Assembly (NCBI GenBank): GCA_050506795.1
Contig: JBJHCF010000001.1
Location: 60,556 to 124,555, forward strand
Source of the DNA: Opitutia bacterium
GTDB lineage: Bacteria; Verrucomicrobiota; Verrucomicrobiia; Opitutales; T3Sed10-336
Direction of reading: 5' to 3'
DNA: 64,000 nucleotides
Each line of letters begins with the position of its first letter. Positions within the stretch are counted from its first letter, which is position 1. Position numbers and translations under genes: made by a program. The notes below the pieces were generated by a model. It saw only the letters and a list, made by a program, of their open reading frames with translations, made no database searches and was not told the DNA's origin. Positions 36,236 to 36,272 of the stretch are shown one piece after another.

Positions 36236-36272
36236 TCTCTCTCTCTCTCTCTCTCTCTCTCTCTCTCTCTCT
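36236..36272. repeat. (TC)18.5 dinucleotide microsatellite
   Basis: Uninterrupted tc/ct tract of 37 nt, read directly. It ends 66 nt upstream of the sigma-factor ATG. Confidence 0.97.

Follow-up and report, generated by a model that had tools for sequence, protein, structure and literature searches.

The stretch of DNA analysed here, a 64-kb window of the Opitutia bacterium contig JBJHCF010000001.1 (64,000 nucleotides; 'the window' below), carries a perfect TC dinucleotide tract in the gap between a gene for a DUF1559/N-methyl prepilin-like protein and a gene for an extracytoplasmic function (ECF) sigma factor. The tract is a length-polymorphic microsatellite conserved in position among related loci, and its length determines the frame in which an open reading frame (ORF) entering from upstream arrives at the sigma factor gene. 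On the strength of these sequence features we tentatively propose, as a reading that we favor with considerable reserve, that the tract may function as a translational contingency switch, setting the reading frame within a translated 5' leader of the regulator gene rather than the spacing of a promoter.

A TC tract conserved in position and variable in length

Positions 36236 to 36272 of the plus strand read (TC)18 plus a terminal T without interruption, 37 nt in all. Tandem Repeats Finder scores this tract as an array of period 2 with 18.5 copies and 100% matches, the sole period-2 array in the window, and a TC run of only 12 nt has an expectation of 0.00 per 100 dinucleotide-preserving shuffles. 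Contingency loci are typically built on a perfect simple-sequence repeat of slippage-capable length, and (TC)18.5 is such a repeat. An earlier, sequence-only reading of this DNA had described a perfect 37-nt TC tract at this position with a repeat of CACGAAA words upstream of it; both elements are confirmed, the word repeat being placed by Tandem Repeats Finder at 36151-36171.

An independent assembly, the Logan assembly of run SRR31311414, contains DNA identical to the window on either side of the tract. Its contigs L001 (at its end) and L002 (at its start) both break within the TC tract, as is to be expected of a k=31 assembly graph at repeats of about 31 nt or longer. The tract remnants left on these two ends measure 28 nt and 20 nt; the same k=31 logic applied to a single 37-nt allele predicts 30, and a second allele or paralogue in the SRR31311414 sample that shares CG(TC)n and (TC)nTACGGAATGGC may explain the shorter ends.

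Related loci were retrieved via the sigma factor and the MauE-like protein encoded behind it, which gave four homologous heads, the head being the conserved region that leads into the regulator gene. The five heads compared are thus those of the window, L003, L011, L013 and L010, with L003 and L011 near-identical to each other. L003 (identical to L006) belongs to the NCBI metagenome-assembled genome (MAG) GCA_003565815.1, 'PVC group bacterium T3Sed10_216', where 'T3Sed10' denotes sediment of the Tanatar-3 soda lake (PMC13274419). L011 and L013 are two contigs of the Joint Genome Institute (JGI) metagenome 3300078543, and L010 is a separate contig of SRR31311414. A TC/CT tract occupies the same position in all five heads, with lengths of 37, 21, 19, 24 and 22 nt in the window, L003, L011, L013 and L010, respectively (Table 1), and across the roughly 138 kb of window plus related loci this homologous position is the only one with dinucleotide tracts of at least 12 nt.

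The closest pair is the most informative. Exactly one TC unit distinguishes L003 from L011, and their flanks are 98-99% identical (79 of 80 positions in the core before the tract, 79 of 81 in the linker behind it). A repeat number that varies between close strains within constant flanks is the second hallmark of a contingency locus, and the 21-nt tract of L003 and the 19-nt tract of L011 display it; their one-unit difference is a slippage event between strains. The sequence-only reading had called the tract slippage-prone and had recommended a comparison across relatives, with a strain-invariant length as the outcome that would speak against it. Length variation over the five loci bears out this expectation, and strain invariance fails because L003 and L011 differ by one TC unit between near-identical flanks. 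The sequences of these two loci agree through the head and into the beginning of the sigma factor gene and diverge further downstream; the recombination breakpoint between their cassettes falls inside the sigma factor gene and not at the tract.

The more distant MauE-like loci L014 and L015 (55% identity) possess neither head nor tract, the L016 contig begins at the gene and covers no head region, and L008 and L009 begin just upstream of MauE. A metagenome scan for the 20-mer CCATTAACCGACAACGGATA had two matches, one on an unrelated contig from soil (L004) and one in coding sequence that is attributable to chance (L005); a scan of viral contigs found no further copies of the head. L004 (soil metagenome contig Ga0164301_10093687) contains, within positions 380-420, 30 nt identical to the heptamer block of the head (ATGCCCATTAACCGACAACGGATAACCGATAACTGA, which reads MPINRQRITDN*), and this contig is without a TC tract and without related genes.

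Reading frames through the tract

The heads share a fixed order of elements: the CACGAAA-word repeat, GGATGAYTSRACCC, a heptamer block of TTAACCGA CAACGGA TAACCGA TAACCGG, a spacer of 8-9 nt and the tract, followed on its 3' side by TA(C/A), then 3-4 nt, then ATGGC. An nhmmer profile match to the head core spans 36141-36247. Identity between lineages is 74-87% over the 80 nt before the tract, about 50% in the linker and 53-69% in the regulator coding sequence. L010 possesses the same head, in which an AraC-type HTH_18 regulator takes the place of the ECF sigma factor.

Within the head, an ATG at 36184 is present in 5/5 loci, 52-54 nt before the tract (52 nt in the window), and opens an upstream ORF that reads through the tract. 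A strong Shine-Dalgarno sequence precedes this conserved ATG in L003 and L011 (AGGAGG-N6) and in L010 (AAGGAG-N7); in the window, by comparison, only about 9 of 37 genes, with starts placed crudely, have any Shine-Dalgarno-like 4-mer ahead of them. The same arrangement recurs elsewhere on the L010 contig, where, at position 718, three CACGRAA words, 12 nt and ATGATTCAACCYATT open a 364-aa ORF (nhmmer E=7.6e-8) whose protein has hydrophobic segments at its N- and C-terminus. Since it begins this 364-aa ORF, the start module CACGAAA-N12-ATGATTCAACCYATT serves a real gene.

The frame consequences of tract length are direct. With the 37-nt tract of the window allele, the TGA that ends the upstream ORF overlaps the sigma factor ATG at 36363 (ATGA, stop at 36364). 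A tract of 35 or 41 nt yields an uninterrupted protein of 247-249 aa that starts at 36184 and ends in the complete sigma factor, and a tract of 33 or 39 nt yields an ORF of 48-50 codons with a TGA stop 31 nt before ATG 36363. In the L003 group, tracts of 17 or 23 nt give the fusion, the second frame ends in TGAtcATG, 5 nt before the ATG, and the third stops at -31. Relative to the sigma factor ATG, the out-of-frame stops therefore lie at +1 (window) or -5 (L003 group) for the +1 frame and at -31 in both lineages for the third. The natural alleles cover all three frames: L013 is fused, the window and L011 stop at the ATG, and L003 stops early. For the in-frame allele of L013, the gene caller produced a single 295-residue ORF through the tract. 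These distances are measured from ATG 36363, at which cross-species conservation of the sigma protein begins. The sequence-only reading had counted 66 nt from the tract to an ATG at 36339; its arithmetic was right, and conservation indicates that ATG 36363, 90 nt from the tract, is probably the true start rather than ATG 36339.

How such a locus would operate can be outlined. Slipped-strand mispairing would alter the tract by whole TC units. Ribosomes starting at ATG 36184 would read the tract as (Ser-Leu)n, and tract length modulo 3 would select one of three frames on its 3' side. At 35 or 41 nt a fused long sigma factor, exceeding the short form by about 60 residues, would be made; at 37 nt the upstream ORF would end on the sigma factor start, permitting termination-reinitiation of the short form; and at 33 or 39 nt translation of the upstream ORF would cease 31 nt ahead of ATG 36363. 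Each one-unit slip would thus move the gene between three states, changing the amount and form of the sigma factor and, with it, expression of the AT-rich envelope cassette downstream. The sigma factor retains an internal ATG of its own, likewise conserved, from which the out-of-frame states may still give the short form. In this outline we infer the use of ATG 36184, a sigma output that differs between frames and frequent switching.

Several observations, in addition to the Shine-Dalgarno sequences and the start module of the 364-aa ORF, are consistent with translation of the leader. The regulator frame is stop-free over the whole linker in 5/5 loci, with shuffle probabilities of 0.37, 0.58, 0.40 and 0.14, values that are individually weak and jointly suggestive. 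The linker translation is best conserved in the sigma frame, both between the window and L013 (z=2.8 versus -0.8 and 0.7 in the other frames) and between L003 and L013 (score 82 versus 66 and 46). In the nearest sigma factor relatives outside the clade, P0031 and P0033 (~30% identity), the same (E/D)WSD(K/E)AL motif (WSDKAL) is preceded by an extension of about 45 residues. Finally, a repeat situated soon after a start codon with one frame yielding the full-length protein, as in the outer-membrane protein (OMP) genes of Helicobacter pylori, is what the window presents (52 nt from the ATG, full length at 35/41 nt), and L013 is a natural in-frame example.

A second set of observations weighs against a reading-frame switch. 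First, ATG 36184 of the window is preceded by a weak GAG alone, a poor Shine-Dalgarno sequence. Second, the 17 codons before the tract show substitutions at a ratio of 5:5:3 over codon positions 1:2:3, with no third-position excess, although one change, CGG to AGA, keeps arginine; in L013 a 1-nt insertion frameshifts the pre-tract peptide, so that its sequence is not what is conserved, and the periodicity of the heptamers suggests that this block arose at the DNA level. Third, three of the four ECF alleles are out of frame, and the out-of-frame stops adjoining the ATG are not individually significant in a shuffle test (P 0.14-0.59), a weakness that extends to the single statistics for the stop-free linker frames. 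Fourth, in the AraC-type head of L010 a TAA at the tract end rules out fusion; the only arrangement available there is stop-CAA-ATG(4944) in one frame, and no stop separates ATG 4944 from the AraC ORF, with which it shares its frame. Alignment of the leader peptide against 5.8 billion proteins recovered only the 60-aa ORF of L010 itself and no other called copy, and the comparison of frames comprises five sequences, two of them near-identical.

Some of these points would be expected of a neutral or nearly neutral microsatellite, a by-product of slippage in a repeat-rich lineage that is inherited by descent and has no regulatory role. Such an origin, which we consider unlikely, agrees with the out-of-frame majority of ECF alleles and with the lack of a codon-position signature in the upstream ORF. 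It also agrees with the many intergenic tandem 7-9-mers and the 22-mer array of the window, which indicate that repeat genesis is common here, with the fairly close relationship of the loci (flanking proteins 64-88% identical) and with other word repeats that likewise keep their position between loci. However, the tract is the sole dinucleotide array in the 138 kb of window plus loci, and prokaryotic genomes generally suppress mono- and dinucleotide repeats (PMC4060949). Neutrality also sits poorly with the length (19-37 nt) and near-perfection that the tract has kept in five loci whose adjoining linkers have diverged to about 50% identity, and with its retention before two types of regulator, ECF and AraC.

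Promoter, RNA and DNA-structure alternatives

The region in which a promoter would be sought is bounded upstream by the prepilin-like gene, whose homologue precedes the head in L010, L011 and L013, that is, wherever upstream sequence suffices; the window protein is 88% identical in amino acid sequence to the L011 copy and 64% identical to the L010 copy. Directly behind this gene lies a GC-rich hairpin (Table 1) that is kept in L010 and L013. In L013 it was called terminator-like, as was a shorter stem overlapping it in L010; the window itself received no such call. The hairpin is probably the terminator of the pilin-like gene. From its position at 36028-36047, the start of regulator transcription would be expected between it and the head.

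The (TA)n tract of hifA/hifB in Haemophilus influenzae and the poly-G tract of Neisseria meningitidis porA sit between the -35 and -10 hexamers (PMC3899988), and the sequence-only reading had supposed a hif-like placement of the TC tract within the promoter. Our analysis speaks against this placement. Promoter-spacer switches of the hifA/hifB and porA kind operate at spacings of about 16-19 nt, whereas the tracts here are by themselves 19-37 nt long, and a consensus scan of the plus strand of four heads (window, L010, L011 and L013) found no sigma-70-type hexamer pair near the tract. The tract was accordingly rejected as a -35/-10 spacer. The TC tract resembles the hifA/hifB and porA repeats in being a simple repeat of polymorphic length near a gene start, the associated change of expression being a property of those loci, and differs from them in exceeding any spacer and in having no flanking hexamers.

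In the closest version of the promoter idea, the tract would hold an upstream element (the CACGAAA words or the heptamer block, perhaps activator- or UP-like) at a variable distance from a core promoter in the linker, and repeat number would determine helical phasing and thereby transcription. Conserved blocks do flank the tract, namely the heptamer block and TTCGCYCG on its 5' side and TAC-N3-ATGGCGG on its 3' side; the terminator-like hairpin implies a new promoter nearby; and spacing precedents exist in the TAAA repeat of nadA and the GAA repeat of Mycoplasma gallisepticum (PMC3899988). Even so, we judge this arrangement improbable. Apart from the excessive tract length and the lack of sigma-70-type hexamers in the four heads scanned, enumeration of -35/-10-like motifs common to the linkers and to the gaps between the sigma factor and MauE genes revealed no autoregulatory ECF promoter and no ECF-type motif that recurs in the promoter region of the cassette. 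Moreover, a common core promoter 3' of the tract is unlikely because the ECF and AraC heads share no sequence past ATGGC.

A repeat in the transcribed leader could instead act at the level of RNA. The 5' untranslated region (UTR) of H. influenzae hmw1A/hmw2A contains a transcribed heptamer repeat that gives graded rather than binary output (PMC12721329), and by analogy (UC)n might pair with the G-rich segment just downstream (GGCGGGACGGGGGCG), or might form an unstructured pyrimidine platform for the ribosome or S1, so that its length would tune folding, processing or translation with no role for the upstream ORF. In the minimum-free-energy fold, the downstream G-rich segment does pair with the 5' portion of the tract and with the sequence flanking it, and a weak CGCC/GGCG stem closes the tract in the consensus fold of the five sequences. 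A stable, conserved hairpin with a G-rich arm, as in hmw1A, is not what these folds describe, however: the leader folds no better than shuffled sequences (z=+0.66), and in the consensus fold, itself weak, the covariation term is positive (+2) and compensatory pairs are few and broken by L010. A further long-range ATGAYT/ARTCAT pair with one compensatory change in the consensus fold was not trusted. Rfam yielded no match over the whole window at the gathering threshold and only chance snoRNA and miRNA matches in 35950-36450 at E<=10. The locus is thus like hmw1A/hmw2A in having a repeat that presumably lies between promoter and start codon and is transcribed, with a G-rich segment after it, and unlike them in having no significant hairpin and in a 2-nt unit that permits frame effects on an ORF. 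We regard an RNA rheostat of this kind as a long shot.

At the level of DNA, the perfect 37-bp (TC)n tract is a homopurine-homopyrimidine mirror repeat and so has the sequence, and on the present evidence only the sequence, required of H-DNA (background in PMC4060949). An intramolecular triplex formed under negative supercoiling would make local transcription or recombination supercoiling-sensitive. The recombination breakpoint of L003 and L011, lying within the sigma factor gene, is away from the tract. High pH, in addition, disfavors the protonated pyrimidine-motif triplex. Since the relatives come from alkaline soda-lake sediment (PMC13274419), such hosts are expected to make H-DNA less likely, and we assign it a very slight probability.

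The regulator, its cassette and comparison with known contingency loci

The short form of the regulator has the domain composition of ECF (group 4) sigma factors: about 190 aa with regions 2 and 4 and without regions 1.1 and 3. Its scores are 2.2e-10 for Sigma70_r2, 5.5e-9 for Sigma70_r4_2 and 73 bits against a cut-off of 42.9 for TIGR02937. The sigma factor clade is tiny, with a single 50%-identity cluster, its own, beyond E=1e-30 among 1.84 billion representatives and next matches that are about 30-37% identical.

Table 1. Coordinates of the tract, the head and the associated features in the window and at related loci
Feature	Sequence	Coordinates	Strand	Remarks
(TC)18.5 perfect microsatellite	window	36236-36272	+	(Ser-Leu)n in upstream ORF; direct reading, Tandem Repeats Finder, shuffles
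Homologous TC/CT tract	L003	332-352		21 nt
Homologous TC/CT tract	L011	2589-2607		19 nt
Homologous TC/CT tract	L013	217-240		24 nt, one T-for-C interruption, 19 nt pure
Homologous TC/CT tract	L010	4917-4938		22 nt
Upstream neighbor, DUF1559/N-methyl (prepilin-like) gene	window	35253-36026	+	Pfam SBP_bac_10, N_methyl
GC-rich hairpin (AGTCCCGC-TGTC-GCGGGACT), then G/T-rich tail	window	36028-36047	+	direct reading
Head core	window	36141-36235	+	CACGAAA-word repeat 36152-36172; start region with ATG 36184; heptamer block TAACCGA/CAACGGA 36198-36224
Upstream ORF reading through tract	window	36184-36366	+	60 codons in window allele, MTEPINRQRITDNRTSLV(SL)n...
Linker, tract to sigma factor ATG	window	36273-36362	+	90 nt; contains conserved ATGGCGG (36278-36284)
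ECF sigma factor, short form	window	36363-36929	+	other in-frame starts 36339, 36300; Pfam Sigma70_r2, r4_2; NCBIfam sigma70-ECF
Cassette: MauE-like membrane protein	window	37021-37485	+	Pfam
Cassette: 390-aa protein	window	37550-38722	+	hydrophobic N- and C-terminal segments
Cassette: 152-aa Cys-rich protein	window	38735-39193	+	
Cassette: GtrA-family protein	window	39602-40138	+	Pfam
Inverted CACGAAA-word repeat pair closing cassette	window	40149-40190 and 40438-40470		same arrangement in L003

The cassette behind the sigma factor gene (37021-40138) is AT-rich, with a GC content of 45-51% against about 60% in the remaining window. The cassettes behind the head are hypervariable. Between the window and L003, MauE is 84% identical, GtrA 67%, the sigma factor 59% and the 390-aa protein 32%, and no match was obtained for the 152-aa protein; for the flavin adenine dinucleotide (FAD) oxidoreductase that flanks the cassette, identity between loci is 85-87%. 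On the 3' side of the cassette lie this PRK07208 FAD oxidoreductase and then a weakly glycosyltransferase-like protein, a neighborhood that suggests an envelope or glycan context. The AraC-type regulator of L010 is followed by the same kind of cassette, consisting of a MauE-like protein, variable proteins, GtrA and an FAD oxidoreductase. The MauE-like gene stands directly after the sigma factor gene, and because AraC-type regulators also precede it, its product is not clearly an anti-sigma factor. PADLOC returned nothing for the five cassette proteins scanned, and NCBIfam assigned families to the sigma factor only among the cassette proteins.

The MAG GCA_003565815.1 contains four different MauE-type cassettes on four short contigs (L003, L007, L008 and L009), which are either paralogous loci or strain variants collapsed in one bin; L003 has a full head, and the other three contigs begin just upstream of MauE or inside the regulator. 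In AraC-type cassettes, the gap between regulator and MauE contains two 19-nt direct repeats (AATGTCCGRAAAACGYRGA; L010 5516-5554, L008 60-110, L009 20-60), which are plausible candidate binding sites for the AraC-family regulator. ECF-type cassettes have AACGGTTACCYTATTGAA in common in the corresponding gap.

The words of the head recur elsewhere in the window. Besides the pair that closes the cassette, inverted pairs of the CACGAAA word (GGAAACAACGAAACACACGAAAGRCACGAAA) are found at 43862-43895 versus 43971-44000 and at 45885-45905 versus 45971-45995. Such pairs are intergenic, lie 75-250 nt apart, keep their arrangement in L003 and L010, and resemble miniature inverted-repeat transposable elements (MITEs) or repetitive extragenic palindromic (REP) elements. 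Solo copies at 33737-33765, 36152-36172 and 49118-49145 stand 11-12 nt before start codons. Intergenic tandem repeats occupy 11363-11544, 11615-11654, 20901-20956, 49172-49203 and 36198-36224; the heptamers among them are TATCGCC x5.6, ACCAAGA x8, TAACCGA x3.9 and AAATCCA x4.6, the last directly before the dnaE2 ATG, and a 22-mer forms an array of 8.3 copies. As a group they are reminiscent of the short tandemly repeated repetitive (STRR) sequences of cyanobacteria. The gene next to the AAATCCA repeat encodes a DnaE2-type error-prone polymerase III alpha subunit (49211-52327) and adjoins an ImuB-like gene with an IMS/Y-family domain (47547-49079); the pair, 47547-52327, is an imuB-dnaE2 mutagenesis cassette, and the 241-aa ORF upstream of the ImuB-like gene (46883-47608) may be imuA. 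Close to where the variable region begins on the left, the pilin-like gene is immediately preceded by a YhgA/Rpn-like Transposase_31 gene with a DUF4351 domain (34320-35054).

Among characterized systems, the closest analogue of a reading-frame switch at this locus would appear to be the CT repeats in the 5' coding region of H. pylori OMP genes (oipA/hopH, hopZ, sabA and others), which switch frame by slipped-strand mispairing (PMC11124246). As in those genes, the unit is CT/TC, the repeat follows a start codon at a distance of some tens of nucleotides and would encode serine and leucine in alternation (Leu-Ser or Ser-Leu), and in-frame and out-of-frame alleles coexist among strains. Unlike in those genes, the target is a regulator (ECF sigma factor or AraC) rather than a surface protein; the sigma factor has an internal ATG, so that there are three possible states and the short form may persist by reinitiation; and the head is portable, common to ECF and AraC regulators in a free-living soda-lake host of the Planctomycetes-Verrucomicrobia-Chlamydiae (PVC) group, where the switch is a prediction from DNA sequence.

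The lic1/lic2 genes of H. influenzae, reportedly described by Weiser et al. in 1989, are said to carry tetranucleotide repeats with alternative in-frame ATGs and three translational states; the present locus is similar in its repeat just after start codons and in its three predicted states, and different in unit length, host and target. Phase-variable regulators are themselves known, with a poly-C tract in Bordetella bvgS and homopolymers in Campylobacter flgR/flgS, and Klebsiella rmpA is reportedly subject to phase variation through a poly-G tract. The TC tract is like these in associating a repeat with a regulator gene, which in those systems results in regulon-wide stochasticity. It is unlike them in that theirs are homopolymers within the main ORF of a regulator in pathogens, whereas the repeat of the present locus is a dinucleotide and belongs to a portable head common to two classes of regulator.

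A more encompassing model, which we consider rather doubtful as a whole, would combine these elements. Free-living soda-lake PVC-group bacteria would carry portable heads, composed of the CACGAAA-word repeat, start module, heptamer block and (TC)n, that set the frame before ECF or AraC regulators, each of which would drive a different AT-rich envelope cassette next to GtrA and glycan genes. Phase variation would thereby be joined to cassette replacement, a combination seen in host-adapted pathogens that would here occur in an environmental lineage, with three translational states available to the regulator: long fused, coupled short and uncoupled. Such a system would perhaps serve evasion of phages or predators.

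To our knowledge, simple-repeat contingency loci are known almost entirely from host-adapted pathogens, usually in surface-protein or modification genes. What sets the present case apart is a conserved, polymorphic dinucleotide repeat in a free-living PVC-group lineage, placed before a regulator, within a head common to two types of regulator and ahead of a hypervariable envelope cassette. A tract that does not switch would remain useful as a marker of microdiversity among strains and as a place where short-k assemblies break. If the tract does switch, the locus would serve as a simple model, open to experimental test, with one translational outcome for a whole regulon at each of three tract lengths, and slipped-strand bet-hedging would extend to environmental Verrucomicrobiota-like bacteria.

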